Part shown: piece by piece, positions 1,343 to 59,053 of the stretch
Numbering within the stretch: position 1 is the first letter of the stretch
Layout of the letters: every line of letters begins with the position of its first letter
Assembly (NCBI GenBank): GCA_902489335.1
Contig: CABTZO010000001.1
Coordinates: 1 to 61,803, forward strand
Length of the DNA: 61,803 nt
Origin: an uncultured Oscillospiraceae bacterium
Lineage (GTDB): Bacteria; Bacillota; Clostridia; Oscillospirales; Acutalibacteraceae
Direction of reading: 5' to 3'
Notes under the pieces: model-generated
The model's input: the letters and a program-made list of their open reading frames with translations, nothing else
Database searches by the model: none
Told to the model about the DNA's origin: nothing
Translations under genes and position numbers: made by a program

Positions 1343-1362
1343 AAAACCGCCGCAGCGGTTTT
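1343..1362 (-). terminator. Intrinsic terminator ending the T-box operon
   Basis: Hairpin aaaaccgc-cgca-gcggtttt. On the minus strand it is followed by TTTTTATTT and it abuts the TAA stop at 1362-1364. Confidence 0.7.
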
Positions 1363-3893
1363 TATTTGTTCTTATCTTTCAAACGATTTATCGCATCTTC
1401 TCTTAGTTTTGTCTTCAGAACTTTTCCTGCATGATTCATCGGAAACTCGCTTATAAATTCGACATATCTCGGCACTTTATGTCTTGCCATATTTTGTCGG
1501 ACAAAATCTTTCATCTCATCTTCTGTCATTTTCTCGTTTTCTTTTAGAATCACAGACGCCAAAATCTCTTCGCCGTATTTTTCGTCGGGAACACCTATGA
1601 CCTGAACGTCGCTCACTTTGGTATTTGTGTAGATGAATTCTTCAATCTCTTTGGGATAAATATTTTCGCCGCCGCGAATTATCATATCTTTCAGCCTACC
1701 CGTTATCTTGAAATTTCCGTCCTCTGTTTTAATCGCAAGATCTCCCGTATGTAACCAGCCGTCGTTGTCAATCGCACTCTTTGTTGCCTTTGGCATTTTA
1801 TAATATCCTTTCATAACATTATATCCACGTGCGATAAATTCACCGGTCTCATTTATTTTGCAATCTTGTCCGGTATTTGGATCTATTATTTTGCACTCAA
1901 TTTCAGGTAAAGGTCTTCCGACAGTTGAAACTCTGACATCAAGAGGGTCGTCGACAAAACTCATCGTGCAGCCGGGTGCGGCTTCCGTTTGACCGTAGAC
2001 AATGGTTATCTCACTCATATTCATTTTTTCGACGACATCTTTCATCACTTTCATCGGGCAGGGACTTCCCGCCATAATTCCCGTTCGCATAAATGAAAAA
2101 TCCGTTTTAGAAAAGTCTTCGTGATTTAACATCGCAATAAACATTGTCGGTACGCCGTGACAAGCGGTAATATGCTCATTATTTATACAACTTAAAGATG
2201 ATTTCGGCGTAAAATACGCAAGTGGATACAGAGTTGTGCCATGGGTAATTCCCGCAATCATCGCAAGCACCATGCCAAAACAATGAAACATCGGTACATG
2301 AATCAAAAGTCTGTCGGCAGTCGAAAAGTCCATTCTGTCTCCGATACACTTTCCGTTATTTATAATATTATAATGCGTCAACATTACGCCTTTTGGAAAT
2401 CCCGTCGTTCCGGAAGTATATTGCATATTGCAAACATCATCTTTGCTAACCCTTTCAGCCATTGCATAGACAGTTTGCAAACTCGTTTTGTCTTTTTGTT
2501 TCAAAGATTCAATAAAGCTCAGAGTTCCTTTTTTCTTAAATCCGACCGTAATAATGTTTCGAAGCATAGGCAGGCGTCTTGCATAAAGAGGATCATCTTT
2601 CTTTTTAGTCTTTATTTCCGGACACAATTCTTCAATTATAGCACTGTAATCAGACAGCTTTGAACCTTTTGTCATAATCAAAGTGTGTGCGTCCGACTGT
2701 TTAAGAAGATATTCGGCTTCGTGTATTTTATATGCGGTATTCATCGAAACCAAAACCGCGCCGATTTTTGTTGTTGCCCAAAAAGCTATATACCACTCGG
2801 GAATATTCGGCGCCCAAATTGCAACGTGAGAGCCTGCTTTTACACCCAAAGATACCAAGGCTCTTGCAAAATCGTCGACATCATCCCGAAACTCGGAAAA
2901 TGTCCTAGTGTAATCCAAAGTCGTATATTTTATGGCACATTGATCCGGAAAAGCCTTAACCATTTTATCCAAAAGTGACGGCAAAGTTTCCGAAATCAAA
3001 ACATCTTTTTTCCACAACATTTTCCCGGTGTGCGATCTGTTGTAATAAAAATTTTCTTTATTTTTTGACGGGTCGGCAAATCTCTGCATAAAACCGTTAA
3101 ATTGAGTCAGAATAATTTCAATATCCTTGTATTCATCCAAAAGTTCTTTTTCACAGACAAAAGTTATAAATCCGTTATAGTTAATTGATGAAAGCGCATC
3201 CATAATTTCATCGGCGGGAAGGCTTCCCTCACCCATAATACGAGATTTCCAAATGCCGTTTTCGTTTATAGCATCTGCAAAATGAATATGTTTAATATAT
3301 GCGCCAAGATTTTCTATTGTATGTTGAGGATCTTTTTCACCGTAAAGGCAGGTTCCCTTTACATTCCACAAAGCGCCCAACTCTAGTGAAGGATTTTCTT
3401 CGAATAAGGCTCTCAAAAGTTCGGTGTCACAGAATACGCCCTTTGTTTCAATCAAAAGTTGAACTCCGCTCTTTCTTGCCTTATCCGACATCGGCTTGAG
3501 TTCTTTTTCAAGTAAAGATAAAAACTCTGATTTATCTTCAAAAGAAGTCATAAACTGAAGTCTGACGTAAGGAATATCTAAAATTTCCGCTATATAAACG
3601 CATTTTTCAAGTTCGGAATATGCATTTTTATAATTTTCATTGTCTTTATTTTTAATACAAAGCGCCGACATATCGGAGGTTGTATCCATACAGACAAGCG
3701 AAAGTTTATTGTCTAAAAGAAACCGCCTTGTTTTCGCACTTGTATAATCGTGAAAAGCGCCCATTTTATCAGTAAAAAGGCTGTTTTTTATGTTATGAAG
3801 CTCCAACCCTTGAAAGTCCGTGTCTTTAGCGATTTGGCACAGTTTATTAAAATTATAATCGCTGTAGCATTTGGTAGAAAAAGAAAGTTTCAT
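1362..3893 (-). CDS. Fusion protein: N-terminal xylose-isomerase-like TIM-barrel (AP_endonuc_2 / sugar-phosphate isomerase-epimerase family) plus C-terminal AMP-forming acyl-CoA synthetase (FadD-like)
   Basis: Residues 1-~270 carry TIM-barrel motifs (LIETKG, IKHIHFAD, GFITFVCE). The remainder carries adenylate-forming motifs (YTSGTTGFPKGVMLTH, YGQTE, GWLHTGD, GRLKDMIIRGGENIYP). RBS GAGGAG lies upstream of the ATG. Confidence 0.85.
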   Translation of the reverse strand: MKLSFSTKCYSDYNFNKLCQIAKDTDFQGLELHNIKNSLFTDKMGAFHDYTSAKTRRFLLDNKLSLVCMDTTSDMSALCIKNKDNENYKNAYSELEKCVYIAEILDIPYVRLQFMTSFEDKSEFLSLLEKELKPMSDKARKSGVQLLIETKGVFCDTELLRALFEENPSLELGALWNVKGTCLYGEKDPQHTIENLGAYIKHIHFADAINENGIWKSRIMGEGSLPADEIMDALSSINYNGFITFVCEKELLDEYKDIEIILTQFNGFMQRFADPSKNKENFYYNRSHTGKMLWKKDVLISETLPSLLDKMVKAFPDQCAIKYTTLDYTRTFSEFRDDVDDFARALVSLGVKAGSHVAIWAPNIPEWYIAFWATTKIGAVLVSMNTAYKIHEAEYLLKQSDAHTLIMTKGSKLSDYSAIIEELCPEIKTKKKDDPLYARRLPMLRNIITVGFKKKGTLSFIESLKQKDKTSLQTVYAMAERVSKDDVCNMQYTSGTTGFPKGVMLTHYNIINNGKCIGDRMDFSTADRLLIHVPMFHCFGMVLAMIAGITHGTTLYPLAYFTPKSSLSCINNEHITACHGVPTMFIAMLNHEDFSKTDFSFMRTGIMAGSPCPMKVMKDVVEKMNMSEITIVYGQTEAAPGCTMSFVDDPLDVRVSTVGRPLPEIECKIIDPNTGQDCKINETGEFIARGYNVMKGYYKMPKATKSAIDNDGWLHTGDLAIKTEDGNFKITGRLKDMIIRGGENIYPKEIEEFIYTNTKVSDVQVIGVPDEKYGEEILASVILKENEKMTEDEMKDFVRQNMARHKVPRYVEFISEFPMNHAGKVLKTKLREDAINRLKDKNK

Positions 3894-3896
3894 AAA

Positions 3897-5264
3897 CTAA
3901 CTCTCCTCATACATAATCTTATTGACCGCATTTATATAAGCCATTATACTTGCGCCTATTATATCGGTTGAGACGCCTTTTCCGGAATATAGTTTTCCGT
4001 CAGAACGAAGTTTTACCAAGGTTACACCGATAGCTTCCTTGCCTTTTGTGACTGATTTAATCTGAAAATCGTCAAGTTCATATCTCTTTCCGACAATGTT
4101 GTCAAGAGCCAAAAATGCGGCGTCAATCGGTCCGTTTCCGCTTGCAAGTCCGACATATTCTTTGCCCTCTTTTTCAACTGTAATCTGTGCATTTGAAGAA
4201 AAGGAACTTACGCTTGTAATCACATAATTTTTAACTTTGTAGACCGACGGTGCTTGCAGTGCAACTCCGGCAATAATTGCGTCTAATTCAACCGCACCGA
4301 CATTTTTGTTTTTCACCACTTTTTTTACTTCGTTAAATACTTTGAGTTTATCTTCATTTGAAAGATCATATCCCAAACTTTCAATCGCTTCGACGACAAC
4401 CGTTTCATCATCATTTACATCAAGTATGATTTTGCTTTCTATCTGCGAATCATCTTTAATATCAAACTTTATTTTATCGTTTTGCCGGGGAGAATCAATT
4501 TGAGAAATATTATTTACGGTTTTATATAGTTTTGAATATTCTATATTGCTGTCAATCAGATATTTATTTCCGTTTTCCCTTAAAAACTCACAAAACTCCG
4601 TAAGCGGTGTGATTTCCCCGTTTATTTGAGTCTTGACAAAATTAAATCCGTTTTTCACCGCCATAGCAGATGTCGCATTTGCAGTGTTTATTTTATTATA
4701 CGCACAAACCGCCAAATTTGATTTATTTTCAAAAGCTATTTTTTCTGTTAAGTTCAAATATTCATCGGGCAAAACACTTGAAGCACTGTCGCAGATTGTT
4801 ACAAAAGAAACTTCTTTGGAAAAAGCTTCGGATACAACTTCCTTAAGAAAGTTTTTATCCGCTCTTGTCGCATCTATGGCACAAAGTTCAATCGTTTCAG
4901 CATAAGATTTCATTTCTTCAATACTTGTTTTAATGTAACTTAAAACATCTTGCGGTTTCTTATGAAAAAGATATTCCATTCCGAGAGTCGAAACGGGAAC
5001 TTCCAAACGAAGCACATAATCTTTTCTGTCGCCGAAAGCGTCCTTTAATTTACCAAAAGGAACAGAGAGTTTAGCGTGACCGAGCAAGCCCAAAAGTGTC
5101 TTAACGAACAACAAATCTACTTTTTCGTCTTGAAGTTGAGGAAGTTCTATAACATCGACGCCCAACCTGTCAAGTTGCTTTGCTATTTCAAGTTTTTCTT
5201 TGAATGTAAACTCTTTATCATTTCTACAGAGCGTAGAATCAATAATCGTTATTTTTCTCATCTT
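3897..5264 (-). CDS. LeuA/CimA-like (HMGL-family) protein with degenerate catalytic motifs and an intact C-terminal LeuA_dimer regulatory domain
   Basis: Start moved to MRKITII (ATG 5264, RBS AAAGGAG 8 nt upstream). Canonical DTTLRDGEQ reads DSTLCRNDK and HCHND reads CAYNK. The C-terminus keeps GNGPIDAAFLALDNI...TDIIGASIMAYINAVNKI. Confidence 0.75.
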   Translation of the reverse strand, partial: KMRKITIIDSTLCRNDKEFTFKEKLEIAKQLDRLGVDVIELPQLQDEKVDLLFVKTLLGLLGHAKLSVPFGKLKDAFGDRKDYVLRLEVPVSTLGMEYLFHKKPQDVLSYIKTSIEEMKSYAETIELCAIDATRADKNFLKEVVSEAFSKEVSFVTICDSASSVLPDEYLNLTEKIAFENKSNLAVCAYNKINTANATSAMAVKNGFNFVKTQINGEITPLTEFCEFLRENGNKYLIDSNIEYSKLYKTVNNISQIDSPRQNDKIKFDIKDDSQIESKIILDVNDDETVVVEAIESLGYDLSNEDKLKVFNEVKKVVKNKNVGAVELDAIIAGVALQAPSVYKVKNYVITSVSSFSSNAQITVEKEGKEYVGLASGNGPIDAAFLALDNIVGKRYELDDFQIKSVTKGKEAIGVTLVKLRSDGKLYSGKGVSTDIIGASIMAYINAVNKIMYEES

Positions 5265-5281
5265 TCTGCTCCTTTTGAAAC

Positions 5282-5308
5282 AAATTTCCGAGTTTAACTC
5301 GGAAATTT
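5282..5308 (-). promoter_or_regulatory. Intercistronic 11-bp perfect stem-loop (aaatttccgag-tttaa-ctcggaaattt)
   Basis: Seen directly in the 48-nt gap between the OFOR gamma gene and the LeuA-like gene. On the minus strand it is followed by GTTTCAAAAGGAG (a weak U-tract, then the RBS). Confidence 0.5.
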
Positions 5309-5312
5309 GCAA

Positions 5313-5852
5313 TTAGTCTTGATAATTAACGCCTATTTTTATTGCCTTTAAATTATAGTCAAATAAATCTGCTTTTCTTTTGGAAATTATCTTTTTGAGA
5401 GTTGTTTCAACCATATTTTCATCAAATTCATCAAAGACTTTCATCATCTTTCCCGCAATAATCATATTTGCAAGTGTAGGTATATCATTTTCACTTGCCA
5501 ATCCCGTGGCAGGTATATAATAAACGGTGACATCGTCTCGTTTAACTTTTCTGTCTATCAGCGATGAATCAGCAAAAATCATACCGCCGCTTTTAACAGA
5601 ATTTTCAAATCGATCGAGAGACGGGAGATTCATTGCGACCAAGACATCCGGTTTTGAAACAATCGGTGATCCGACAGGCTCATCTCCGACAATTACACTG
5701 CAACTTGCGGTACCTCCGCGCATTTCCGGACCGTAAGACGGAAGCCAACTTACATTTTTATCTTCAAGTAAACTTTTATAAGCGATGAACTTTCCGGTAA
5801 ACAGAATTCCCTGTCCGCCGAATCCCGAAAACAACAAGTTTCTGTTACTCAT
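5313..5852 (-). CDS. 2-oxoacid:ferredoxin oxidoreductase, gamma subunit
   Basis: 179 aa with the N-terminal GFGGQGIL motif typical of OFOR gamma subunits. It overlaps the beta gene by 4 nt. Confidence 0.85.
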   Translation of the reverse strand: MSNRNLLFSGFGGQGILFTGKFIAYKSLLEDKNVSWLPSYGPEMRGGTASCSVIVGDEPVGSPIVSKPDVLVAMNLPSLDRFENSVKSGGMIFADSSLIDRKVKRDDVTVYYIPATGLASENDIPTLANMIIAGKMMKVFDEFDENMVETTLKKIISKRKADLFDYNLKAIKIGVNYQD

Positions 5853-6607
5853 TTTGTTGCCTCCCTTTCCGCACTACGATCTTTATATACGCCTAAAGGA
5901 TAATATGGAATCATTTTATCGTCTATCCACTTTAAAGCCTCTTTTGGTGTCAAGCCCCAGTTTGTGGGGCAGGTTGACAGAACTTCAATAAGAGAAAAGC
6001 CCTTGTTTTCAAGCTGATTTTGAAATCCTTTTTTTATTGCCTTTTTGGCGTTTTTTATTCCCTTAATGCTGTTAACCGTAACTCGTTCAAGATATTCGGG
6101 GCCCTCAAGTTCGGATAACATTTCACAAACCTTTATCGGATATCCGCAATCTTCTGCTTTACGTCCGTAGGGCGAAGTTTGTGTAACTTGATCTATCAGC
6201 GAAGTCGGGGCCATTTGACCGCCGGTCATGCCGTATATTGCGTTGTTTATAAATATTATTGTTATATTTTCATTTCTTGCCGCCGAATGAACAGTTTCCG
6301 CCATTCCGATTGATGCAAGATCGCCATCACCCTGATATGAAAACACAATATTATTCTCGGGATCCGCTCTCTTTACACCGGTTGCAACTGCGGGCGCTCT
6401 TCCGTGTGCCGCTTCGATCATATCAAAATTAAAATAATTATAGGCTAAAACTGAACAACCGACAGGTGCAATTCCTATTGTTCTGCCCTCAATTCCAAGT
6501 TCGTCAACAGCTTCCGCTATCAGTCTATGCACAATTCCGTGAGTACATCCCGGGCAATAGTGCAGGGGCTCATCAGATAAAGATTTTGGTTTATCAAATA
6601 CTACCAT
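5849..6607 (-). CDS. 2-oxoacid:ferredoxin oxidoreductase, beta (TPP-binding) subunit
   Basis: Carries CPGCTHG, the GDGD...NN TPP motif (YQGDGDLASIG...FINNAIYGMTGGQ) and STCPTNWG. Confidence 0.9.
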   Translation of the reverse strand: MVVFDKPKSLSDEPLHYCPGCTHGIVHRLIAEAVDELGIEGRTIGIAPVGCSVLAYNYFNFDMIEAAHGRAPAVATGVKRADPENNIVFSYQGDGDLASIGMAETVHSAARNENITIIFINNAIYGMTGGQMAPTSLIDQVTQTSPYGRKAEDCGYPIKVCEMLSELEGPEYLERVTVNSIKGIKNAKKAIKKGFQNQLENKGFSLIEVLSTCPTNWGLTPKEALKWIDDKMIPYYPLGVYKDRSAEREATK

Positions 6608-6617
6608 AATTTCCTCC

Positions 6618-7670
6618 TCACTTACTTGCTTTCACTATGGCATCCAACACCTGTTCGGGTGTCGGTATCATGCCGCCGGTTCTGTTGCAAAGTTCAACGG
6701 GCACCTTACATTCACAAGCGAGTTTTACATCTTCAATCATTTGTCCCATCGACATTTCAACTGTAATAATCTTTTTAACCTTGTTTGCTGCTTCATTAAA
6801 TACCTTTTTAGGAAACGGCCATAAAGTTATTGGTCTGAGTAGTCCTACTTTTATTCCCATTTTACGCGCTTCGTTTATTGCATTTTTTGAAACTCTTGCG
6901 GAAATTCCGAAAGCGGCAATGCAAATTTCGGCATCGTCCATAAGATAACTTTCATACATCGTTTCGTTTTCTTCGATTTTTTTATATCTTTCATATCTGG
7001 CAAAAACTTTATCTTCCAGTGTTTGAGGATCTAAGAAAAGAGAATTTATAACATTCTTCTCTCTCTTTCCTTTTGTTCCGTCAGTCGCCCACGGTTTTTC
7101 AACCTTATCTTCAATTTTAAAATCTAAAGATACGGGTTCCATCATCTGTCCGAGTGTTCCGTCGGCTAAAATCATTGATGTCATTCTGTATTTATCTGCA
7201 AGATCAAAACCTTTGACGGTAAGTTCCGCCATTTCCGCAACAGATGCGGGTGCCAAAACTATCAAATGAAAATCTCCGTGTCCGCCGCCCTTGGTTGCCT
7301 GAAAATAATCTGACTGACTCGGTTGAATTCCTCCGAGTCCGGGTCCGCCTCTTTGAACATTGACTACAAGAGCGGGCAAGTCTGCTCCGGCAAGATATGA
7401 AAGTCCTTCACTTTTTAATGCAATTCCGGGACTTGAAGAAGAGGTCATTACTCTTTTGCCTGCGGAAGAAACTCCGTATACCATGTTTATTGCGGCAATT
7501 TCACTCTCTGCCTGTAAAAACACTCCTCCGATTTTAGGCATTCTCTTTGCCATGTATGCGGCAACTTCCGTTTGTGGCGTAATAGGATATCCGAAATAAT
7601 GTCTGCAACCTGCAATGATAGCGGCTTCCGCTATCGCTTCGTTGCCTTTCATCAAAACTTTTTCTGTCAT
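6618..7670 (-). CDS. 2-oxoacid:ferredoxin oxidoreductase, alpha subunit
   Basis: 350 aa with typical alpha-subunit blocks (GNEAIAEAAI.AGCR.YFGYPITPQTE, QRGGPGLG). Confidence 0.9.
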   Translation of the reverse strand: MTEKVLMKGNEAIAEAAIIAGCRHYFGYPITPQTEVAAYMAKRMPKIGGVFLQAESEIAAINMVYGVSSAGKRVMTSSSSPGIALKSEGLSYLAGADLPALVVNVQRGGPGLGGIQPSQSDYFQATKGGGHGDFHLIVLAPASVAEMAELTVKGFDLADKYRMTSMILADGTLGQMMEPVSLDFKIEDKVEKPWATDGTKGKREKNVINSLFLDPQTLEDKVFARYERYKKIEENETMYESYLMDDAEICIAAFGISARVSKNAINEARKMGIKVGLLRPITLWPFPKKVFNEAANKVKKIITVEMSMGQMIEDVKLACECKVPVELCNRTGGMIPTPEQVLDAIVKASK

Positions 7671-7888
7671 TGATTTTTCTCCTCCTTTTCAACGGAAATT
7701 ACGCAGTCAGGACACATCATGGCACAGAAAGCACAACTGATACAGTCCGCTTCTCTTACCGCCTCCACAGGATGATGTCCTTTCTTATTTATAGCCGTTT
7801 TAGATAATTCAAGAACTTTTTTGGGACAAACATCTACACAAAGACCACAGCCTTTACATCTGTCTTCCATTATTGTTAGCTTCTTCAT
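7667..7888 (-). CDS. 2-oxoacid:ferredoxin oxidoreductase, delta subunit (2x[4Fe-4S] ferredoxin)
   Basis: 73 aa with two CxxCxxCxxxCP motifs (CKGCGLCVDVCP, CISCAFCAMMCP). It overlaps the alpha gene by 4 nt. Confidence 0.9.
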   Translation of the reverse strand: MKKLTIMEDRCKGCGLCVDVCPKKVLELSKTAINKKGHHPVEAVREADCISCAFCAMMCPDCVISVEKEEKNQ

Positions 7889-7906
7889 CGATTATTCCTT
7901 TCCAAA

Positions 7907-8557
7907 TCAAATTGTTGTTTGCAATTTCAAAGGGAACAAATTATTTATTCTGTCTTTCAAACTGTCGTATAAATCTTCTCTCACACTTGTCATTACAATC
8001 GGCAGATTTGTCCTTTTCGATAGCTCTTCGGCTTTTTTTACAGAGTTTAAAATATCTTTTTCGTCGGTTGCACTGCCGATATTTGAATTATTTATAATGC
8101 CGGTGAAATGAAATCTTGAAGCAAATTCAATCTCTTCCATTATTTTTATTATGTCTTCCACTTCAGAGCTTAAAGGTCTGTAAAAATTAACTGTAACAAA
8201 CATATCATATTCGTCTTCCCCCACTCTCGAATGCAGTCTTCCTAAAGCAAGGGCTCCTCTTTCGTCTCCGCCGACATCGACGATGAAATTAAAATCTTTT
8301 TCATCTGCGACAGAATACATTTGTTGAGGAAGAGATGGAATATCTAAATTACTGTTTGCAAAGTCTGAGGCAATGAGTTCAATATTGTATTTTGATAAGA
8401 TTTCTTTGCTGTCCTTTGTTCTGAAATAGGGATTGACTATATCAAGATCGGCAATTTTTATTTTTTCGTTTTCCTTTGCCTTTTTTATAGCCAAATTTAC
8501 CGCAACATTTGTTTTCCCGCTGCCGTAATGACCGGCAATAAATGTAACTCTTTTCAT
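7907..8557 (-). CDS. P-loop NTPase (SIMIBI class, MinD/CooC-like), unknown role
   Basis: Start moved to MKRVTFIAGHYGSGKT, where the ATG overlaps the ilvE TGA (TGATG). It has a Walker A motif (GHYGSGKT) and a DVGGDE Walker-B-like motif. Confidence 0.7.
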   Translation of the reverse strand: MKRVTFIAGHYGSGKTNVAVNLAIKKAKENEKIKIADLDIVNPYFRTKDSKEILSKYNIELIASDFANSNLDIPSLPQQMYSVADEKDFNFIVDVGGDERGALALGRLHSRVGEDEYDMFVTVNFYRPLSSEVEDIIKIMEEIEFASRFHFTGIINNSNIGSATDEKDILNSVKKAEELSKRTNLPIVMTSVREDLYDSLKDRINNLFPLKLQTTI

Positions 8558-9651
8558 CAATCTTTTAAGTTGAGCGGATAGGTCCAACCCATAAAGTCTT
8601 CAAGTTTTCCTGTTTGCATTCCGTAAAGGGTGTCGTAAAGTTTTTGGGCAGTTTCTCCGACTTTTCCGTCTCCGACTTGATAATCTTTTCCCTTATAATT
8701 TAAAACCCCGATAGGTGAAATTACAGCTGCGGTTCCGCTCGCAAAAATTTCTTTCAAACTATTATCTTCTGAAGCTTTGAGTATGTCATCAATAGAAAGT
8801 TTTCTTTCACTGATTTTCATTCCCCAATGTTTTAATAGCTTGATAACAGAATCCCTGGTGATGCCGGGCAATATTGTTCCGCTGTCAAGAGGAGCGGTAA
8901 TTACTTCATCACCGATTTTGAAGAAAGCGTTTGAAGTGCCGATTTCTTCGACATATTTATGTTCCAAAGCATCAAGCCAAAGGACATCTTTACAGTTATA
9001 TTTCATAGCATTCTTAGAAGCTCTCATTCCTCCGCCGTAGTTTCCTCCGACTTTGGCAAATCCGGTTCCGCCGGGCACCGCACGAACATATTCGTCTTCG
9101 ACATAAATTCTCGTTGTGCTGAGTCCTCCGTCATTTGCCGCATAATATGAACCTGTTGGGCTGAGAATTATCATAAATTTATAGTGCTTTGCGGGAAGAA
9201 CGGAAAAAGAAACTTCGTCTCCAAAGATAAACGGTCTGATATACATCGCCGTACCTTCAAGTTTTGGCATCCAATCGGCGTCAACCTTGATTAACTGTTC
9301 AACCGCTGCGACCAACAGGTCATCCGGTAAATCCGGAATACACATTCTCTCGTTTGTGTTTTTCATTCTCTTGACATTCATATCCGGTCTGAAAATCTGA
9401 ATGCCTCCGTCCGGGCGTCTGTATGCTTTCATTCCCTCAAACATCATCTGAGCATAGTGAAGAACGCAGGACGCGGGTTCAATCAGAAAAGGTTCATTCG
9501 GAACAATTCTTCCGTCGTGCCAGCCTTGATCTTCATCATAATCCATTACAAACATGTGATCGGTAAAATATCTTGCAAAACCGAGCTTTGTTTCATCTTC
9601 CGGTCTTTTCTTGGGACTTTTTGTCCTCTCAACTCTAAAATTGTAACTCAT
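8557..9651 (-). CDS. ilvE: Branched-chain amino acid aminotransferase (class IV, long form)
   Basis: 364 aa with conserved blocks (HYAQMMFEGMKAYR, GGTGFAKVGGNYG, ILPGITRDSV). Confidence 0.9.
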   Translation of the reverse strand: MSYNFRVERTKSPKKRPEDETKLGFARYFTDHMFVMDYDEDQGWHDGRIVPNEPFLIEPASCVLHYAQMMFEGMKAYRRPDGGIQIFRPDMNVKRMKNTNERMCIPDLPDDLLVAAVEQLIKVDADWMPKLEGTAMYIRPFIFGDEVSFSVLPAKHYKFMIILSPTGSYYAANDGGLSTTRIYVEDEYVRAVPGGTGFAKVGGNYGGGMRASKNAMKYNCKDVLWLDALEHKYVEEIGTSNAFFKIGDEVITAPLDSGTILPGITRDSVIKLLKHWGMKISERKLSIDDILKASEDNSLKEIFASGTAAVISPIGVLNYKGKDYQVGDGKVGETAQKLYDTLYGMQTGKLEDFMGWTYPLNLKD

Positions 9652-9669
9652 TGTATCCTTCTTTCTTTA

Positions 9670-10458
9670 TTATAAATTATAAATTTCTGCTCTTCTGTCA
9701 TTAAAGACATTAATATCTCGGCGAATTTTATTGACTGTTTCAAAATTGCACTCGCAAAAATCAATCTCTTCTTTACCGCCTAAATTGTAAAGTTCATTTC
9801 CCAAAGGGTCAAAGGCTATGGAATTTCCTCCGTAAACTGTTTTTTCTGCCTTTCCACACGAATTACAGGAAACCGCAAAGATTTGATTTTCAATTGCCCT
9901 CGCCTTTAAAAGTGACTTAAACTGTTCAATCCTTTCTTTGGGCCACTGGGCGACGACAAAAATCAATTTTATCCCATCAAGTGCAAGACTTCTTATCAAT
10001 TCGGGAAATCTCAAATCGTAGCAAATTATTACCGCAGCTTTTTCTCCGTCGACTAAAAATGTCTTATACCCTTTTCCTTTTTCAAAATATTTGTCTTCTT
10101 CCATCGGTGAAAATAGGTGACATTTATCATATTCGCAAATAACGGTTCCGTTTCTGTCAAATACAAAAGAAGTATTGTATATTTTGCCGTCATTTTTTTT
10201 ATTCATCACGCTTCCGGCAACAGCATTCACCTTATATTTTTTACAGAGTTCACCGAAAAGTCTTTTCGTCTTTTCTCCGTTTATGTCGGCAAATTCCGAT
10301 AAATCATTTTTAGGAAAAAATCCCACATCCCACATTTCAGGATAAACAATAACATCCGGATTTTTTGACAATGCTTTATCGAACATCTTTTTAGCCAAAT
10401 CATAATTTGATTCTTTATTTAGAAAAGTCATATTCATTTGGCAACATGCTATTTTCAT
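9670..10458 (-). CDS. Carbon-nitrogen hydrolase family protein (Nit/omega-amidase-like)
   Basis: The E-K-C triad context is present: VIVYPEMWDVGF, YDKCHLF, AVIICYDLRFPE. Confidence 0.8.
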   Translation of the reverse strand: MKIACCQMNMTFLNKESNYDLAKKMFDKALSKNPDVIVYPEMWDVGFFPKNDLSEFADINGEKTKRLFGELCKKYKVNAVAGSVMNKKNDGKIYNTSFVFDRNGTVICEYDKCHLFSPMEEDKYFEKGKGYKTFLVDGEKAAVIICYDLRFPELIRSLALDGIKLIFVVAQWPKERIEQFKSLLKARAIENQIFAVSCNSCGKAEKTVYGGNSIAFDPLGNELYNLGGKEEIDFCECNFETVNKIRRDINVFNDRRAEIYNL

Positions 10459-10466
10459 AATATCAC

Positions 10467-12734
10467 CTACAGTTTATTTCTCTGTATTTTTCCGCTTATG
10501 GTTTTCGGGAGACTATTTCTAAAGACAACTTTTCGCGGATATTTATACGGAGCGGTATTAGATTTTACATATGTCTGAATTTCTTTTATAAGTTCTTCAC
10601 TGCCCTCTGTTCCGTCAACCAATACCACACTCGCTTTAACAATCTGACCTCTTATCTCATCTTTTTCGGCTGAGACTCCACATTCCAAAACATAGGGTAG
10701 TTCCATTATTACGCTTTCAATTTCAAACGGTCCGATTCTATAACCGGATGATTTAATAACATCGTCAACTCGTCCGACATACCAGAAGAATCCGTCTTCG
10801 TCTCGCCAAGCAGTGTCTCCTGTATGATAAGCTCCGTCATGCCAAACTTCCTTGGTTTTTTCATCATCGTTATAGTAACCCATAAAGATTCCGGGCGTAT
10901 TCTTGGCTGAAGTTTTGACAACGATTTCACCGATTTCACCGTTTGGCAAACTGTTTCCTTCTTCATCGACTATATCAACATCATAAAGAGGAGTTGCCTG
11001 TCCCATTGAACCGAATTTATGTGTGTTGCCCATTAAATTTGCTATTACGAGAGCAAGCTCGGTCTGACCGAATCCCTCCATTATTTCAAGCCCCGTACTG
11101 TTTTTAAACTGTTTGTATACTTCCGGATTTAAGGCTTCACCGGCTGTTGTCATATGTTTGATGCTTGAAAAATCATACTTTGATAAATCTTGTTTAATCA
11201 TCATTCTCAGGATTGTAGGTGGTGCACAGAATGAAGTTATACCGTATTTCTCGAAAAGAGGCATTATATCCGCCGCATCAAAACGGTCAAAATCATATAC
11301 GAAGACTGCACCTTCACAGAGCCATTGTCCGTAAAGTTTTCCCCACATAGCTTTGGCCCAACCGGTTTCGGCAATTGTAAAATGAAGACTGTTGTGTTCA
11401 ACTCCGTGCCAATATTTTGCCGTTATGTAATGTCCTAAAGCATATTTATAGTTATGCATCGCTATTTTGGGATAACCTGTAGTTCCGGAAGTAAAGAACA
11501 TCAACATTGGGTCATTTCCGCAAGGAGAATCGTTTCTTCTTCTAAAATGGGTGCTGAATAACTGATATTCTTCGTCAAAATCATGCCAGCCTTCTCTCTC
11601 TCCGCCGACAAGAATTTTGTTTTGAAGTTTTCCGACTTTCTCTTCGGCCAGTTCTACCTGATGAGCAACATCACCGTCCGCGGTACATAAAATTGCACTG
11701 ACTCCGGCACTTTCAAATCTGTATTCAAAATCATGGGATTGTAGTTGATTTGTTGCAGGAATTGCTATTGCACCGAGTTTATGCAGTCCTAAAATTGCAA
11801 ACCAAAATTGATAATGTCTTTTAAGAACAAGCATAACCCTGTCTCCGCGTTTAATACCCAAAGATTTGAAATAATTGGCCGCTCGAGCAGAATTTTTTCG
11901 CATGTCATCATAGGTAAATTTTCTTTCAACTTTGTCTTTCGACAGATGAATCATTGCTGTTTTTGTCGGATCTTTTTTTGCTACTTTGTCAACAACATCA
12001 AAAGCAAAATTAAAATTATCATCATTTTTGAATTTGATATCAAGTAAGGACCCGTTTTCATCTTCATGAAGCTCAATGAAATCTGCGCTTACACCGTGCT
12101 TAGATGCTTTTATAGGTGCAATTACCGTCTCTCTCGTTTTCTTTTCGTTTTCTTCTTCTCCCGGCAAAACAACGGCAAGGAAAAAACAATCTTCTCCGTT
12201 TACGGCTATCATTCCGTGAGGTGTTGCGCTGTTATAGTAAATACTGTCGCCCTCATTAAGATATTCAATATGATCTCCGACTTGAACTTTAAGGCAACCG
12301 CTCATAACATAATCAAATTCTTGACCTTTGTGTTTTGTCAAATGAATTGGTCTGTTTTGTAGCTCTTGGCTGAACTCATATTTAACAAAATAGGGTTCTG
12401 CTATCTTTTTACGAAAAAGCGGAGCAAGATTTTTTATATCTATTCCCGGTTCTTTTGCAGTCTCCTGTCCTTCGCCTTTTCTTGTGACATTGTAAAACGA
12501 AAGATGTGCGCTAACCCCTTCTAAAATATCGGTTACACCTATATCAAAAACCAAGGAACATTTATGTATAAATGTAAACGGAAAGTCCTGTGTTCCGCTC
12601 TCAAAATTTCTATATTCCTCTAAACTGACATCTGTCTTTTCAGCCATTTCTTCCTGTGACAGACCTGAAATTTCGCGCATTTCCTTTATTCTTGTAGCTA
12701 TTTCAAATAATTTTTCTGCTGCAACAGTTGTCAT
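10467..12734 (-). CDS. Tri-domain fusion: XRE-type HTH, cupin, and AMP-forming (medium-chain/acetyl-CoA-synthetase-like) acyl-CoA synthetase
   Basis: HTH_3 segment (EMREISGLSQEEMAEKTDVSLEEYRNFESG). Cupin segment (HKGQEFDYVMSGCLKVQVGDHIEYLNEGDSIYYNSATPHG). Adenylation motifs (FFTSGTTGYPKIAMH, GFGQTE, YHTGDTAWRDEDGFFWYVGRVDDVIKSSGYRIGP, SGKIQR). RBS AAGGAGG 8 nt upstream. Confidence 0.85.
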   Translation of the reverse strand: MTTVAAEKLFEIATRIKEMREISGLSQEEMAEKTDVSLEEYRNFESGTQDFPFTFIHKCSLVFDIGVTDILEGVSAHLSFYNVTRKGEGQETAKEPGIDIKNLAPLFRKKIAEPYFVKYEFSQELQNRPIHLTKHKGQEFDYVMSGCLKVQVGDHIEYLNEGDSIYYNSATPHGMIAVNGEDCFFLAVVLPGEEENEKKTRETVIAPIKASKHGVSADFIELHEDENGSLLDIKFKNDDNFNFAFDVVDKVAKKDPTKTAMIHLSKDKVERKFTYDDMRKNSARAANYFKSLGIKRGDRVMLVLKRHYQFWFAILGLHKLGAIAIPATNQLQSHDFEYRFESAGVSAILCTADGDVAHQVELAEEKVGKLQNKILVGGEREGWHDFDEEYQLFSTHFRRRNDSPCGNDPMLMFFTSGTTGYPKIAMHNYKYALGHYITAKYWHGVEHNSLHFTIAETGWAKAMWGKLYGQWLCEGAVFVYDFDRFDAADIMPLFEKYGITSFCAPPTILRMMIKQDLSKYDFSSIKHMTTAGEALNPEVYKQFKNSTGLEIMEGFGQTELALVIANLMGNTHKFGSMGQATPLYDVDIVDEEGNSLPNGEIGEIVVKTSAKNTPGIFMGYYNDDEKTKEVWHDGAYHTGDTAWRDEDGFFWYVGRVDDVIKSSGYRIGPFEIESVIMELPYVLECGVSAEKDEIRGQIVKASVVLVDGTEGSEELIKEIQTYVKSNTAPYKYPRKVVFRNSLPKTISGKIQRNKL

Positions 12735-13165: not shown

Positions 13166-14497
13166 TCAAACAACACCTTGGGCCATCATGGCATCGGCTA
13201 CCTTCAAAAATCCGGTTACATTTGCACCTAAAACAAGATTACCCTTGTCGTTATATTCTTCTGCAGCATCAGAAATATTGTAGTATATATTTTGCATTAT
13301 TTTTTCCAAATGTTTATCAACCTGCAAAAAGCTTTTTGCAAGCCTCTGAGAGTTTTGCGACATCTCTAAAGCAGAAACGGCAACCCCACCTGCATTTGCA
13401 GCTTTTGCCGGTCCAAAAATCACCTTACTGTTCTGGAAATATTTTACTGCATCAATTGTTGTTGGCATATTTGCACCTTCTGCAACCAAAATACATCCGT
13501 TTTTACACAGCTCCTTTGCATCATCAAGTAGCAATTCATTTTGCGTTGCACAGGGAAGCGCAATATCACAGGGGATATTCCAAGGACGTTGACTGGGAAA
13601 ATATTCCGCTTCTTTCCTATATTGTAAATATGAGTGGATCCTCTCTTTTTTATTTTCTTTAACTTCTTTTAAGACTTCAAGGTCAATGCCGTCTTTATCA
13701 TATATAAATCCGCTCGAATCAGATGCGGTCAAAACTTTTGCCCCCATTTCGATTGCCTTTTCAATAGCATAGATAGCTACGTTTCCTGAACCTGATATTG
13801 AAACTTTTTTGTTTGCTAAACTTGCTCCCATTGATTCCAGCAGAGTTTCAACAAAATAAATAAGTCCGTATCCGGTTGCTTCGGTTCTTGCGAGTGATCC
13901 ACCGTAGCTGAGGCCCTTTCCCGTTAAAACACCTACATATTTATTTGTTATTCTCTTGTATTGACCGAAAAGATATCCTATCTCTTTTGCGCCGACTCCT
14001 ATATCTCCTGCCGGAACATCGGTATCTTCTCCGATGACTCTGTATAATGATGTCATAAAGCTCTGGCAAAGTCTCATGATTTCATTGTCACTCTTGCCTT
14101 TAGGATTAAAATTGCAACCACCCTTACCGGCACCGATTGGAAGTGAAGTCAAAGAATTCTTGAAAATTTGTTCAAAAGCTAAGAATTTTATAACCGAAAG
14201 ATTTACAGACGGATGAAATCTGAGTCCTCCTTTATATGGCCCTATCGCTGAGTTAAACTGGATTCTATACCCTCTGTTGACTCTAACTTTTCCGTTATCA
14301 TCAATCCATGGCACGCGAAAAACATATAATCTTTCAGGCTCAACAAGTCTTTCCATGAGTGCAGCTTTTTGATATTCCGGATGAGCATCTAAAACAGGTT
14401 CAATTGATTTTATAAAGGCTCTGCTTGCCTGTAAGAACTCTGCTTGACCACGATTATTATCTTCCAAATAACTGATTATCTTTGATCCGTATGACAT
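13166..14497 (-). CDS. gdhA: Glutamate dehydrogenase (NADP-type, hexameric family)
   Basis: Start moved to MSYGSKI. GDH signature KGGLRFHPSVNLSVIKFLAFEQIFKNSLT and Rossmann motif GSGNVA are present. Confidence 0.92.
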   Translation of the reverse strand: MSYGSKIISYLEDNNRGQAEFLQASRAFIKSIEPVLDAHPEYQKAALMERLVEPERLYVFRVPWIDDNGKVRVNRGYRIQFNSAIGPYKGGLRFHPSVNLSVIKFLAFEQIFKNSLTSLPIGAGKGGCNFNPKGKSDNEIMRLCQSFMTSLYRVIGEDTDVPAGDIGVGAKEIGYLFGQYKRITNKYVGVLTGKGLSYGGSLARTEATGYGLIYFVETLLESMGASLANKKVSISGSGNVAIYAIEKAIEMGAKVLTASDSSGFIYDKDGIDLEVLKEVKENKKERIHSYLQYRKEAEYFPSQRPWNIPCDIALPCATQNELLLDDAKELCKNGCILVAEGANMPTTIDAVKYFQNSKVIFGPAKAANAGGVAVSALEMSQNSQRLAKSFLQVDKHLEKIMQNIYYNISDAAEEYNDKGNLVLGANVTGFLKVADAMMAQGVV

Positions 14498-22611: not shown

Positions 22612-23514
22612 CTAAAACAAGCTTTTCAACTGCTCAATTAAATAAATATGCACGGGAAGAACACTTGTCATGTACATTAAAATAATCCCGATTATCATTG
22701 AAATAAATGATACTCCGCCAAAATAAACTGTAAATTTTTCAAGCTTATCTTTGTCTTTTGAATATTTATTTTTCAAGTATTTGAGCTTTTTTTGAATTGA
22801 CCATTTATAAATATAATTCCCAAAAAAGGCGAGAATTATAGTAGTAATATTGATAAAGCGATTTGAATACTTCATGCCTTTAGAAGGCTCTGGCATTTTT
22901 GCAAGCATTTTTTTATACTCACCGGCGTAATTGCTCGCGGTTATCTCTTTTGCATCAACTTTGTCCTTGAATTCCTTGATAACAGAAAGGCTATTTTTAT
23001 AAACTTTTACATTATCGCTGTGTGTAAAAGAAAGAATTATTGCCGGTATTATGACAAGAAGTAGACCCAGTAAATACATTTTTCTGTAAAAAAGCCAAAG
23101 TCTCGGAAAAAACAAAGGTGCTAAGTTGACACTTAACTTCTTATTTGATTTTTCCATTTTCATAAATTCGGGAATATATTTTTCTGTCTTTTTTTGAACG
23201 AAAGAGCCATATTCCTTTGCAGTAAGATCGCCAATCTTGTCCTCTCCCGTTATCTCAACAATATCAGCTTTTTTTAGCAGAAAATCTTTCATTTTTTCGG
23301 GATCGTTTTCAAGATTTTCAATTGTCGGTTGTGGTTTTTCTACATGAGTCGGTTTCCACTCAAAATTTCCGTGTTTGTTTTCATTGACACAATGGCCTTC
23401 TTTTTCATAACAGGACCTGTGATGAGGCGTACCACAAATCGGACAAACAACAACATCGTCGCCGTCCACAAATTTTTTACCGCAGGTTTCACAAACTTCT
23501 GATATATATCTCAC
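22612..23514 (-). CDS. Membrane protein with N-terminal Cys/His zinc-ribbon/RING-like module
   Basis: CETCG...CPICGTPHHRSCY...GHC is followed by several TM segments. Confidence 0.55.
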   Translation of the reverse strand: MRYISEVCETCGKKFVDGDDVVVCPICGTPHHRSCYEKEGHCVNENKHGNFEWKPTHVEKPQPTIENLENDPEKMKDFLLKKADIVEITGEDKIGDLTAKEYGSFVQKKTEKYIPEFMKMEKSNKKLSVNLAPLFFPRLWLFYRKMYLLGLLLVIIPAIILSFTHSDNVKVYKNSLSVIKEFKDKVDAKEITASNYAGEYKKMLAKMPEPSKGMKYSNRFINITTIILAFFGNYIYKWSIQKKLKYLKNKYSKDKDKLEKFTVYFGGVSFISMIIGIILMYMTSVLPVHIYLIEQLKSLF

Positions 23515-23523
23515 TTTTTCTCC

Positions 23524-26283: not shown

Positions 26284-27022
26284 TTTTTCCCTCTTTTCTT
26301 TGAATCGCAACTTCATTGAGTATGATTCCGGCAGCAACAGATGCATTTAGTGAATCTATTTTTCCATAAAGCGGTATTGAGATTAAAAAATCACAATTTT
26401 CTTTCATCTTTTGAGATATTCCCTTGCCTTCCGAACCTATAACTACGGCAATATTTCCGGTCATATCAGTCTTTTTTAAATTTTCTCCGTGCATATCTGC
26501 TCCATAAATCCAAAGGCCTTCCTTTTTTAATTTTGAAACAGTATTCAAAAGATTAGTAACTCTTGCAATTTTTATATATTCGACTGCGCCGGCTGAAGCT
26601 TTGGAAACCGTAAAGTTAACGCTTGCACTTCGGCGTTCCGGAATTATTACTCCGTCAGCGCCCATGCATTCCGCACTTCTTATAATCGCACCTAAATTAT
26701 GCGGATCAGAAATTCCGTCACAAATAACAATAAATTTATTTTCGTTTTTTGATGAATTTAATATATCGTCTACTGAAAAATATTCATATGAGGACGCTTT
26801 GGCGACAATCCCCTGATGATTTCCTTGAGCACACATAAAATCCAACTTTTTAGAATCTACGGTTTTTATCAATGCTCCGCTTTTTTTTGCTTTGAATATC
26901 AAGCTTTTAATAATTTCAGAATTATTATCTCGGTCAACGTAAACCGTGTCAATCTGACGTTTTGCTCTCAACGCTTCATTTACGGCGTTTTTTCCGATAA
27001 TTAATTCATCTGCCTGTATCAT
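26276..27022 (-). CDS. rlmB: TrmH-family 23S rRNA (Gm2251) 2'-O-methyltransferase
   Basis: SpoU/TrmH motifs are present (DGISDPHNLGAIIRSAE, VIGSEGKGIS, IPLYGKIDSLNASVAAGI). Confidence 0.85.
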   Translation of the reverse strand: MIQADELIIGKNAVNEALRAKRQIDTVYVDRDNNSEIIKSLIFKAKKSGALIKTVDSKKLDFMCAQGNHQGIVAKASSYEYFSVDDILNSSKNENKFIVICDGISDPHNLGAIIRSAECMGADGVIIPERRSASVNFTVSKASAGAVEYIKIARVTNLLNTVSKLKKEGLWIYGADMHGENLKKTDMTGNIAVVIGSEGKGISQKMKENCDFLISIPLYGKIDSLNASVAAGIILNEVAIQRKEGKND

Positions 27023-30850: not shown

Positions 30851-30859
30851 GAGAAATAT

Positions 30860-32919: not shown

Positions 32920-32920
32920 T

Positions 32921-34998: not shown

Positions 34999-35059
34999 TT
35001 GACTTTGCAAAACCTTTTATTTAGAATGACCTTATAAATTAAGGTTGGTAAATATTGAT

Positions 35060-37455: not shown

Positions 37456-37808
37456 TGGTGGAGATGGCGGCAATCGAAACCGCGTCCGAAAACTCATCCA
37501 CAAGACTTTCTACGAGCGTAGTCAATTTAAAAAATTCATTTTAAAATAAAAACTGACAAAATCTTTTAAAATATATTCTCGATAATTCATGATATGGGCC
37601 GAGAAAACTCATATTCACGTTCCCCGCTAAAATGACACCGTACTTTGAAACCGCGGGTTATCTCAAAGACGATGGCAACTTAAGTTAAGCTGCTTGTAAT
37701 TGTAAATTTTTGTCGTTTCTTATTGAAACTTGTGACATTTTAAGGTGATTATCACAGCACCGCTCGCTTTTTCCTGCTTTTAAGTCCCGTCGAAATCCTT
37801 TCATCCCC
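37456..37808 (-). ncRNA. ssrA: tmRNA (SsrA)
   Basis: Minus strand reads 5' GGGGATGAAAGGATTTCGACGGG ... GGACGCGGTTTCGATTGCCGCCATCTCCACCA 3'. The internal tag ORF ends ...GAC AAA AAT TTA CAA TTA CAA GCA GCT TAA (...DKNLQLQAA*). Confidence 0.9.
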
Positions 37809-40839: not shown

Positions 40840-40998
40840 CGAAGGTGCTTTCACTTTATCATACGGCGTCCCGGTTATCCGTGGCACCCGTTGCGGTCCG
40901 CTTAATGCTGCTCGGTTCCCCGCCTGACATGATTCACGGTGCACCGTCGCACGGGACCGAAGCGCCATATGATGAAATAAAAGCTTTCCTCCGCTCTC
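40840..40998 (-). ncRNA. ffs: Signal recognition particle RNA, short form (no Alu domain detected)
   Basis: The minus strand contains the domain IV core ATGTCAGGCGGGGAACCGAGCAGCATTAAGCGG. Flanking arms pair (TCATATGGCG.../...CGCCGTATGA and CGGAGG/CCTTCG). Promoter TTGCCT-17-TATAAT lies at 41004-41032, and the RNA sits directly upstream of dnaX as in other Firmicutes. Confidence 0.8.
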
Positions 40999-59042: not shown

Positions 59043-59053
59043 GGAGAAAATCA

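Follow-up and report, generated by a model that had tools for sequence, protein, structure and literature searches.

A candidate T-box-controlled operon for the synthesis of branched-chain amino acids from branched short-chain fatty acids in an uncultured Oscillospiraceae bacterium

Introduction

Degraders of fibre and starch in the rumen and hindgut depend on branched volatile fatty acids, and this dependence is exploited by feed additives. In the route known from the classical rumen work of Allison, Bryant and Robinson, an acid is activated to its acyl-CoA, CO2 is fixed using a low-potential donor and an amino acid is formed; labelling in rumen organisms revealed the conversion of isovalerate to leucine, of 2-methylbutyrate to isoleucine and of isobutyrate to valine (summarised in PMC7356843). 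No dedicated genes are named in that summary, and likewise the genome paper of Methanobrevibacter ruminantium invokes reductive carboxylation without dedicated genes (PMC2812497). Here, we describe ten co-directional genes (g1 to g10; minus strand, 12734-1362) within a stretch of 61,803 nucleotides from an uncultured Oscillospiraceae bacterium (assembly GCA_902489335.1, contig CABTZO010000001.1, positions 1 to 61,803; the whole stretch is called the window in the following). We consider it quite probable that these genes form a salvage-type operon under T-box control, which takes up branched short-chain fatty acids of exogenous origin into a reductive carboxylation that ends in branched-chain amino acids.

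The individual parts of such a system have described counterparts. The chemistry of AMP-forming ligases favours acid activation. 2-Oxoacid:ferredoxin oxidoreductases are reversible and usually run in the oxidative direction in amino acid fermenters, and enzymes of the VOR type are mostly discussed as catabolic, namely in archaea and amino acid fermenters. Concerning T-box control, the ilv-leu operon of B. subtilis is preceded by a Leu T-box. Among the ligases, MacsMa from Methanosarcina acetivorans prefers 2-methylbutyrate as substrate, and its residue Trp259 is critical; it also adenylates propionate, but the full two-step reaction is efficient with 2-methylbutyrate alone (PMC10455477). Purified MbcS has KM values below 10 µM for 2-methylbutyrate and isobutyrate, while isovalerate is barely used (KM >500 µM), and the enzyme serves lipid priming in S. 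aureus (PMC10026030).

The locus studied here shares its chemistry with the classical route, and the habitat fits too, i.e., many related genomes stem from ruminant and other gut samples. What we propose in addition is a regulated gene set in which each acid has its own ligase, the oxidoreductase and the IlvE aminotransferase are used in common, and T-boxes exert control. The entry ligase g1 shares 50% identity, Trp259 and a pocket Gly with MacsMa and has MbcS as its best NCBIfam model. It differs from both by an N-terminal helix-turn-helix (HTH) and cupin part, by its T-box control, by the neighbouring oxidoreductase and IlvE genes, and by an MbcS score that stays under the cutoff. While MbcS feeds lipid synthesis, we propose g1 to act in amino acid synthesis. 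With VOR enzymes, the oxidoreductase has in common the delta-alpha-beta-gamma subunit set, the thiamine-diphosphate and iron-sulfur (Fe-S) motifs, and an alpha subunit that passes the VorB cutoff; here, however, the regulation suggests the synthase direction, and a P-loop NTPase gene accompanies the enzyme. The attenuation by uncharged tRNA, which acts via specifier and T-box sequence, is that of the known Firmicutes operons for branched-chain amino acids, but the controlled genes would be those of a fatty-acid salvage instead of the acetolactate/isopropylmalate pathway, and the three specifiers found in relatives (Ile, Val, Leu) split one pathway into substrate-specific entry steps. Finally, g9 shares the HMGL-like barrel and a well-conserved LeuA_dimer domain with LeuA/CimA, while in its family the residues aligned to Arg (substrate) as well as Asp and two His (metal) of LeuA are replaced, and its partner is a ligase fused to a TIM barrel.

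The chemistry goes back to work of the 1960s, and all protein and RNA families involved are known as well. New are the candidate regulated gene set for the pathway, the coding of its three entry steps by three T-box specifiers, and the sensor-like domains including a degenerate LeuA. The full-text literature searched, which left subscription-only papers outside its scope, held no description of the cluster or of T-box-regulated vor genes; this agrees with a preliminary description of the window, according to which the route is not known to have an agreed dedicated, regulated gene cluster.

Operon layout and T-box leader

The calls of open reading frames (ORFs), leader and hairpins are summarized in Table 1. 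They confirm the ten tightly packed genes that the preliminary description had placed between a T-box and a terminator. Public contigs with an identical IlvE, among them QWCB01000238.1 (GCA_003555645.1), carry gene calls that agree with those of the window and set the start of g4 to 8557 (216 aa) and that of g9 to an ATG at 5261 (454 aa). The intergenic distances are 8 nt (g1-g2), 18 nt (g2-g3 and g4-g5), 10 nt (g6-g7) and 3 nt (g9-g10), while stop and start overlap by 1 nt between g3 and g4 and overlaps of 4 nt are found for g5-g6 and g7-g8. The single long gap that had been reported does exist, i.e., between g8 and g9, but it measures 51 nt rather than 48 nt. The domain content (Pfam, NCBIfam) matches the earlier gene list, including the AMP-forming nature of the two ligases, given the AMP-binding domains in g1 and g10. 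That both ligases are fusion proteins is a detail absent from the earlier account.

The leader upstream of g1 matches the Rfam T-box model RF00230 in full (positions 1-219 in the covariance-model alignment of the window leader). Aligned to the consensus specifier 'uuc-a' we find the codon AUC (Ile; 12933-12931) followed by A (12930). The T-box sequence AAUUUGAGUGGUACCGCGG lies near 12821-12803, with the conserved UGGUACCGCG present. A specifier with following purine, a T-box sequence and a terminator/antiterminator alternative are thus all in place. Judged by the AUC at the specifier position, the leader should read tRNA-Ile. The U-run of the T-box terminator is followed by the ribosome-binding site (RBS) AAGGAGGAA and the ATG of g1.

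The proposed route would start with uncharged tRNA-Ile, which would pair with the AUC specifier and block termination in the leader such that the operon is transcribed. The ligase g1 would then use ATP to form 2-methylbutyryl-CoA, perhaps also isobutyryl-CoA, and the delta-alpha-beta-gamma oxidoreductase (g5 to g8) would convert the former with CO2 and reduced ferredoxin into 3-methyl-2-oxopentanoate. A transamination by IlvE (g3) would yield isoleucine, for which glutamate from the neighbouring NADP-GdhA may be the amino donor. Beside this, g9 and g10 would constitute a leucine arm, i.e., the FadD-like ligase g10 would activate isovalerate and the common oxidoreductase and IlvE would finish leucine. 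The end products would presumably be sensed by the cupin of g1 and the allosteric domain of g9. Such a synthesis of isoleucine or other branched-chain amino acids from branched acids by reductive carboxylation had already been put forward in the preliminary description, and it is supported by the AUC specifier, by the T-boxes of related genomes and by the 50% identity of g1 and MacsMa.

Table 1. Features of the operon and its flanks (positions within the window).
Feature	Position	Strand	Evidence
gdhA, NADP-specific glutamate dehydrogenase, immediately upstream of the operon	13166-14497	-	NCBIfam PRK09414, 732.5 bits vs. cutoff 536
Promoter-like site TTGACA, 17 nt, TAGAAT, 5' of the T-box leader	13061-13033	-	consensus scan only, 11/12 matches
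T-box leader	13022-12781	-	Rfam RF00230, 114.1 bits vs. gathering score 93
T-box terminator hairpin, 16 pairs, then U-run	12795-12760	-	
g1, XRE-type HTH + cupin + AMP-forming acyl-CoA synthetase	10467-12734	-	Pfam HTH_3/HTH_19, Cupin_2, AMP-binding, AMP-binding_C
g2, carbon-nitrogen hydrolase, nitrilase superfamily	9670-10458	-	Pfam CN_hydrolase PF00795, 1.8e-45
g3, IlvE, class IV type II branched-chain aminotransferase	8557-9651	-	NCBIfam equivalog PRK13357, 447.8 bits vs. cutoff 307
g4, small SIMIBI-class P-loop NTPase	7907-8557	-	Walker A GHYGSGKT; weak Pfam CbiA/ParA matches
g5, oxidoreductase delta subunit	7667-7888	-	Pfam Fer4 families; two CxxCxxCxxxCP motifs
g6, 2-oxoacid:ferredoxin oxidoreductase alpha subunit	6618-7670	-	Pfam POR_N, PFOR_II
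g7, oxidoreductase beta subunit	5849-6607	-	Pfam TPP_enzyme_C; GDG...NN thiamine-diphosphate motif, four cluster cysteines
g8, oxidoreductase gamma subunit	5313-5852	-	Pfam POR, 8.5e-35
Hairpin in g8-g9 gap, then UUUC and g9 RBS	5310-5280	-	-18.2 kcal/mol, z -3.64
g9, degenerate LeuA/CimA-like protein	3897-5261	-	Pfam HMGL-like 3.4e-20, LeuA_dimer 1.5e-31
g10, xylose-isomerase-like TIM barrel (residues 1-290) + FadD-like AMP-forming acyl-CoA synthetase	1362-3893	-	Pfam AP_endonuc_2, AMP-binding, AMP-binding_C
Likely operon terminator: hairpin + T-rich tail, extending into the g10 stop codon	1370-1335	-	

Directly past the likely operon terminator, a tRNA-Arg(CCU) with its own promoter-like site is found (1297-1223, minus strand).

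T-box units in related genomes

Searching species-representative genomes with a g9 family profile yielded more than 532 loci, of which the best 80 were analysed by mapping the window proteins onto them for synteny. These 80 loci all belong to Oscillospirales-type metagenome-assembled genomes with labels such as Acutalibacteraceae, Oscillospiraceae or Ruminococcus sp., and many of the genomes are from goat, sheep, deer, buffalo or cattle gut. Since they represent related lineages, locus counts are not to be read as independent events.

For 37 loci, the sequence extends 9 kb or more upstream, and in 24 of these the oxidoreductase cluster directly precedes g9-g10 in the same orientation. Most often, the arrangement is ligase A, a gap of ~400 nt, ligase B, g4, delta, alpha, beta, gamma, IlvE, another gap of ~400 nt, g9 and g10, where the gaps between the units contain T-box leaders. 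The preliminary description had suggested to look for the gene order behind T-boxes in other genomes; the genes are indeed found there, split over Ile, Val and Leu T-box units.

The specifiers of the relatives were read from alignments anchored on the window leader. Unit A, which holds the g1 ortholog (N-terminal domain 60-69% identical), shows AUC (Ile) in 10/10 leaders. Unit B combines a paralogous ligase B (N-terminal domain 45-53% identical) with g4, the oxidoreductase and IlvE and is headed by Val codons, i.e., GUA in 20 and GUC in 2 of 22 leaders. For unit C, which consists of g9-g10, the 70 readable leaders carry Leu codons (CUC 67, CUG 3). One Leu and one Val leader were confirmed by Rfam covariance-model alignment. 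The pairing of specifier and ligase is without exception among the readable leaders.

Given its ligase, oxidoreductase and IlvE, the Val-T-box unit would therefore encode a complete isobutyrate-to-valine route. A Val T-box in control of this unit is understandable only for an oxidoreductase that acts on branched 2-oxoacids in biosynthesis, such that the T-box pattern in the relatives argues against a pyruvate or 2-oxoglutarate specificity of this enzyme. Along the same lines, the Ile-addressed ligase should take 2-methylbutyrate and the Leu-addressed one isovalerate, while the T-box logic suggests that oxidoreductase and IlvE are common to all three arms. That the two 2-methyl-branched acids would be served by paralogs of one ligase type is explained by an MbcS-like selectivity, and the different ligase family of the Leu unit fits the observation that MbcS barely uses isovalerate. 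On the other hand, the pattern contradicts the earlier assignment of the second ligase and the pseudo-LeuA to an isoleucine module, since this pair is linked to leucine (Leu T-box) in nearly all relatives.

The window deviates from the usual layout in that a single Ile T-box heads all ten genes while the B ligase and the Leu T-box are absent. A sister species (GCA_030532035.1) has the identical layout with an AUC leader and proteins that are 65-81% identical to those of the window. Because this species shares it, the fused layout is real and maintained, i.e., no assembly artefact. In place of the relatives' Leu T-box, the g8-g9 gap of the window contains a hairpin (Table 1); a hairpin with different stem letters occupies the equivalent spot before the g9 RBS of the sister species (locus L085, 9941-9977). 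It may be an internal attenuator, a remnant terminator or a transcript stabiliser, and because of it the 'one operon' may in practice consist of eight genes plus two.

Two further candidates from the relatives were rejected. Extra conserved genes in long inter-unit gaps turned out to be unrelated surface proteins (locus L012). A T-box with UUC (Phe) specifier at ~4660-8371 of locus L040, considered as an aromatic counterpart, is an ordinary pheS-pheT leader; the g9-g10 unit of this locus, with its Leu T-box, follows a few kb further on.

The ligase g1 and its paralog

The ligase part of g1 contains the AMP-binding (1.3e-65) and AMP-binding_C (1.3e-19) domains of Pfam as well as the motif FTSGTTGYPK, which identifies it as a member of the ANL superfamily. 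Its best PDB match is MacsMa (3ETC; 591 bits, 50% identity over 521 residues). From MacsMa, g1 keeps Trp259 (AKYW) and the Gly that replaces the pocket Trp of Acs (FGQTE); this kinship to a characterised member, the Trp and the pocket Gly place it among the Macs/MbcS-type ligases. The top NCBIfam model is MbcS with 440.8 bits, i.e., under the cutoff of 850, and judged by this score g1 is a relative of MbcS but no MbcS ortholog. We propose that g1 is a 2-methylbutyrate-CoA ligase, which possibly accepts isobutyrate too.

The ligase domains of the paralogs A and B are 74% identical, while their N-terminal HTH-cupin domains are far more divergent. This is also reflected in the 31 positions that are fixed differently between A and B, of which 23 are located in the N-terminal domain of 230 residues and 8 in the ligase domain. 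Four of these 8 differences fall into the motifs GW(G/A)KA(L/M)WG and FGQTExT(L/M)xI(A/G)N, which we take to line the acyl pocket, as in acetyl-CoA synthetase structures. Here, A-type ligases and MacsMa have a Gly where B-type ligases have an Ala, a lead that would fit a larger substrate for A than for B. The window's g1 is of A-type overall, yet it shows the B-like residues Ala460 and Met463 in its GWxKAxWG motif. Its lineage has no B ligase, and the specificity of g1 may have been broadened, compare the B-like residues. A recombinant A/B hybrid was rejected, given that sliding-window identities reveal an A-type N-terminal domain and no clean crossover. A DNA operator of the g1 HTH was sought by inverted-repeat scans of the window and sister-species promoter regions, which returned only AT-rich low-complexity pairs.

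The Ile-specific T-box would also suit a propionate route, in which g1 makes propionyl-CoA, the oxidoreductase acts as 2-oxobutyrate synthase, IlvBN, IlvC and IlvD are encoded elsewhere, and IlvE comes last. The specificity of the oxidoreductase is unreadable from its sequence, and a CimA/LeuA-like protein encoded in the operon brings to mind the citramalate route, which leads to 2-oxobutyrate; this protein, however, comes without the catalytic residues and is Leu-linked rather than Ile-linked. MacsMa-type ligases can adenylate propionate, but MacsMa completes the two-step reaction efficiently only with 2-methylbutyrate (PMC10455477). Furthermore, a 2-oxobutyrate synthase explains neither the Val T-box on oxidoreductase and IlvE nor the Leu T-box on the third ligase, and four further enzymes would be needed while the operon already encodes a full three-step route for 2-methylbutyrate. 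We hold the propionate route to be very unlikely. Canonical ilv/leu genes were searched within the 62-kb window and none was found.

Another alternative relates to lipids or to catabolism, i.e., the ligases could scavenge branched acids mainly as primers for branched-chain membrane fatty acids in an MbcS-like manner, or IlvE and the oxidoreductase could work oxidatively and make branched acyl-CoAs from amino acids. In the classical rumen work, branched acids reportedly entered lipids as well as amino acids, which we count for the lipid variant, and the generally oxidative use of the reversible 2-oxoacid:ferredoxin oxidoreductases by amino acid fermenters is in line with the catabolic one. MbcS, the best NCBIfam match of g1, primes lipids in S. 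aureus (PMC10026030). Priming, though, needs neither an oxidoreductase nor IlvE, yet both lie in one putative transcription unit with a ligase. A T-box induces on uncharged tRNA, and a route that consumes amino acids would be counterproductive in starvation. Finally, with AMP-forming ligases the cell would forgo the acyl-CoA energy that is normally conserved by fermenters. This makes the alternative unlikely in our view, while acyl-CoAs that serve lipids as well as amino acids would be compatible with the proposed synthesis of branched-chain amino acids.

Oxidoreductase, aminotransferase and putative accessory proteins

The genes g5 to g8 provide all domains and motifs of a four-subunit (alpha, beta, gamma, delta) oxidoreductase. 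The alpha subunit passes the model of the VorB subfamily (NCBIfam NF005507; 542.4 bits vs. cutoff 399) and has the alpha subunit of the Pyrococcus 2-keto acid:ferredoxin oxidoreductase as closest PDB match. Reading the specificity of the enzyme from its sequence was dropped, given the mixed NCBIfam and PDB neighbours, and the regulatory context was used instead.

This bears on a generic assimilation of carbon or nitrogen, in which the oxidoreductase would synthesise pyruvate or 2-oxoglutarate and, together with GdhA, feed the formation of glutamate or alanine, and for which the Ile T-box would be incidental. For this, one can point to the delta subunit, which scores best with a 2-oxoglutarate oxidoreductase model, to the 2-oxoglutarate synthases among the nearest solved structures, and to gdhA immediately upstream. 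The NADP-type gdhA at this place, as listed in the preliminary description, is confirmed by PRK09414, but its adjacency is lineage-specific: it recurs in the sister species and in 0/80 other loci. Moreover, the units consistently carry Val, Ile or Leu T-boxes, the aminotransferase is a branched-chain aminotransferase (BCAT) equivalog, and the accompanying ligases most resemble enzymes that activate branched short-chain acids. We thus regard a generic assimilation as extremely improbable.

Beside the equivalog model of Table 1, g3 also passes TIGR01123 (358.2 vs. 250). It shows the pyridoxal-phosphate lysine motif FAKVGGNY, and its closest PDB match is the BCAT of M. tuberculosis (326 bits), which together establish it as a BCAT.

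In g2, the Glu-Lys-Cys triad of the nitrilase superfamily is readable (PEMW, DKCHLF, ICYDLRFPE). With 172.7 bits, the S. aureus protein 3p8k, itself uncharacterised, is the closest PDB entry, followed by Nit2/Nit3 omega-amidases with only ~87 bits; g2 is possibly an omega-amidase. A g2 homolog is present in 1/80 related loci (L021) and in the sister species, and it occurs only beside a distinct IlvE subtype (L021 4452-6347, window 8557-10458, L085 4763-6664). The IlvE proteins of the window and L021 are 81% identical, while the identity to those found elsewhere is ~50%. In all three cases, the pair of hydrolase and IlvE is located between the ligase and g4 and not after gamma. Compared to the relatives, the window thus has as extras the hydrolase beside this IlvE subtype and the upstream gdhA, and both are peculiar to its lineage. 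The co-occurrence suggests that hydrolase and IlvE subtype work as a pair. One may speculate that g2 removes 2-oxoglutaramate after a glutamine-dependent transamination, with which the pairing is compatible; as an omega-amidase, it would pull the transamination.

The AlphaFold2 model of g4 (pLDDT 85.5) was compared to known structures using Foldseek, which reports ATPase-type HypB, the NG domains of SRP54/FtsY, the Mrp-like AF2382 and MipZ (TM ~0.57; probability 1.00 for the HypB, SRP54/FtsY and Mrp-like matches). Walker A motif and fold place g4 in the SIMIBI class, whereas at identities of 12-19% to these matches its subfamily is not assignable. Because g4 contains zero cysteines, it is no Fe-S carrier or electron donor of the NifH-like or Mrp kind. 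The gene is present in 31/33 related loci that hold the alpha subunit, and our guess is that g4 might be an accessory partner of the oxidoreductase with a role in its assembly or regulation.

The leucine-type pair of pseudo-LeuA and TIM-barrel ligase

The scores of g9 are far under the cutoffs of every LeuA/CimA model of NCBIfam. In the alignment with the Listeria LeuA (3ewb), IIDSTLCRNDK replaces FFDTTLRDGEQ and C-A-Y replaces H-C-H. The residues lost in this way correspond to the substrate-binding Arg, the metal Asp and two metal His of LeuA. An alignment of 24 members of the g9 family shows a shared DTTLCRE with an invariant Cys (Cys12) and a missing HxH, while conservation is highest in the LeuA_dimer domain (PF08502), which g9 matches over profile positions 5-131 of 131. 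By these alignments and the sub-cutoff scores, g9 is no working member of the LeuA/CimA synthase family, which bears out its earlier reading as a LeuA/CimA pseudoenzyme. We propose that g9 is a leucine sensor or a partner of g10, next to which it is encoded in 80/80 loci.

With AMP-binding (1.3e-89) and AMP-binding_C (6e-17) domains and the motif YTSGTTGFPKG, g10 belongs to the ANL superfamily as well; its best NCBIfam family is PRK12583 (683.8 bits, under the cutoff of 832). A sequence search with its N-terminal domain against solved structures gave no match at E 0.01, and structure prediction with Foldseek was used. Beside the Pfam match (PF01261, 5.8e-16), the AlphaFold2 model (pLDDT 90.1) resembles the Art22 isomerase, ketose 3-epimerases, IolI and UlaE (TM 0.72-0.77), i.e., it has the xylose-isomerase-like TIM-barrel fold. 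As to the Glu-Asp-His-Glu metal site of such metal-dependent enzymes, some of the expected ligands are conserved, namely E149, H202, H204 and D207, while the acid of strand 8 is variable and an invariant Trp176 stands where the Asp of strand 6 is expected, with strands assigned by eye and not by superposition. The fusion of TIM barrel and ligase is kept in 120/120 g10 homologs among the matches listed. We propose that g10 is an isovalerate-CoA ligase, given the Leu T-box of the relatives.

Weighing the proposed pathway

Several points weigh against a T-box-controlled synthesis of branched-chain amino acids from branched acids. In most relatives, the oxidoreductase is only under control of a Val T-box, such that a cell limited for Ile or Leu alone would depend on leaky or basal levels of expression. 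The window places its Leu-type module under Ile control and past a possible internal terminator hairpin, which renders the logic less clean. The choice of g1 between 2-methylbutyrate and isobutyrate is uncertain, given its A460/M463, and MacsMa adenylates propionate as well (PMC10455477). As for the oxidoreductase, the nearest solved structures mix the generic Pyrococcus enzyme and 2-oxoglutarate synthases, and delta, beta and gamma score best with 2-oxoglutarate or generic NCBIfam models, all under cutoff. Lastly, the 80 loci share kinship, so their counts are not independent.

The observations can be extended to a modular system across gut Oscillospirales that senses demand and product alike, in which each acid has its own T-box-addressed ligase, end-product sensors in physical association with the ligases throttle the ATP-spending entry step, and g4 is an obligate partner of the oxidoreductase. 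We put this forward tentatively, since we lean against it. Which parts could be the sensors is a similarly doubtful matter: the fused HTH-cupin domains might serve the Ile and Val ligases, and the dead LeuA, left with its leucine-binding allosteric domain and possibly along with a degenerate TIM barrel, the Leu ligase. That g4 lets the oxidoreductase work as a synthase is possible rather than probable. If true, this would be the first pseudoenzyme derived from amino acid biosynthesis that is reused as regulator of the salvage route replacing it.

For the proposed pathway, the cluster offers concrete candidates for every step of a 60-year-old labelling result, and the T-box specifiers would by themselves assign the substrates. 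Direct tests of the classical pathway become possible. The pair of pseudo-LeuA and TIM-ligase could be used as marker to find such organisms in metagenomes. Beside this, the locus features unusual biology, i.e., fusions of enzyme and regulator and a degenerate LeuA apparently kept for its allosteric domain.

Other features of the window

The remainder of the window holds housekeeping genes beside arginine and NAD operons. A row of arginine genes (27224-34998, plus strand) encodes argininosuccinate synthase and lyase, an ArgC-type semialdehyde dehydrogenase, ArgJ, an amino acid kinase, a class-III aminotransferase and an ornithine carbamoyltransferase. The row is complete, and therefore the organism keeps the de novo synthesis of at least arginine. 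Directly past it lies an ORF of 488 aa (35045-36511, plus strand) with no match in Pfam or NCBIfam. On the minus strand (22612-26346), an ORF of 940 aa without Pfam match adjoins a protein of 300 aa with Prok-RING_1 and DUF2628 domains.

Two RNA genes are found on the minus strand, namely a tmRNA (37456-37808, 149 bits) and a small signal recognition particle RNA (40865-40963, 64 bits). Also on this strand, a single ORF at 53707-55317 combines an L-threonylcarbamoyladenylate synthase domain (residues 8-204) with a dephospho-CoA kinase domain (341-523). Finally, a nadA-nadB-nadC row for the de novo synthesis of NAD is located at 56639-59890 on the plus strand.

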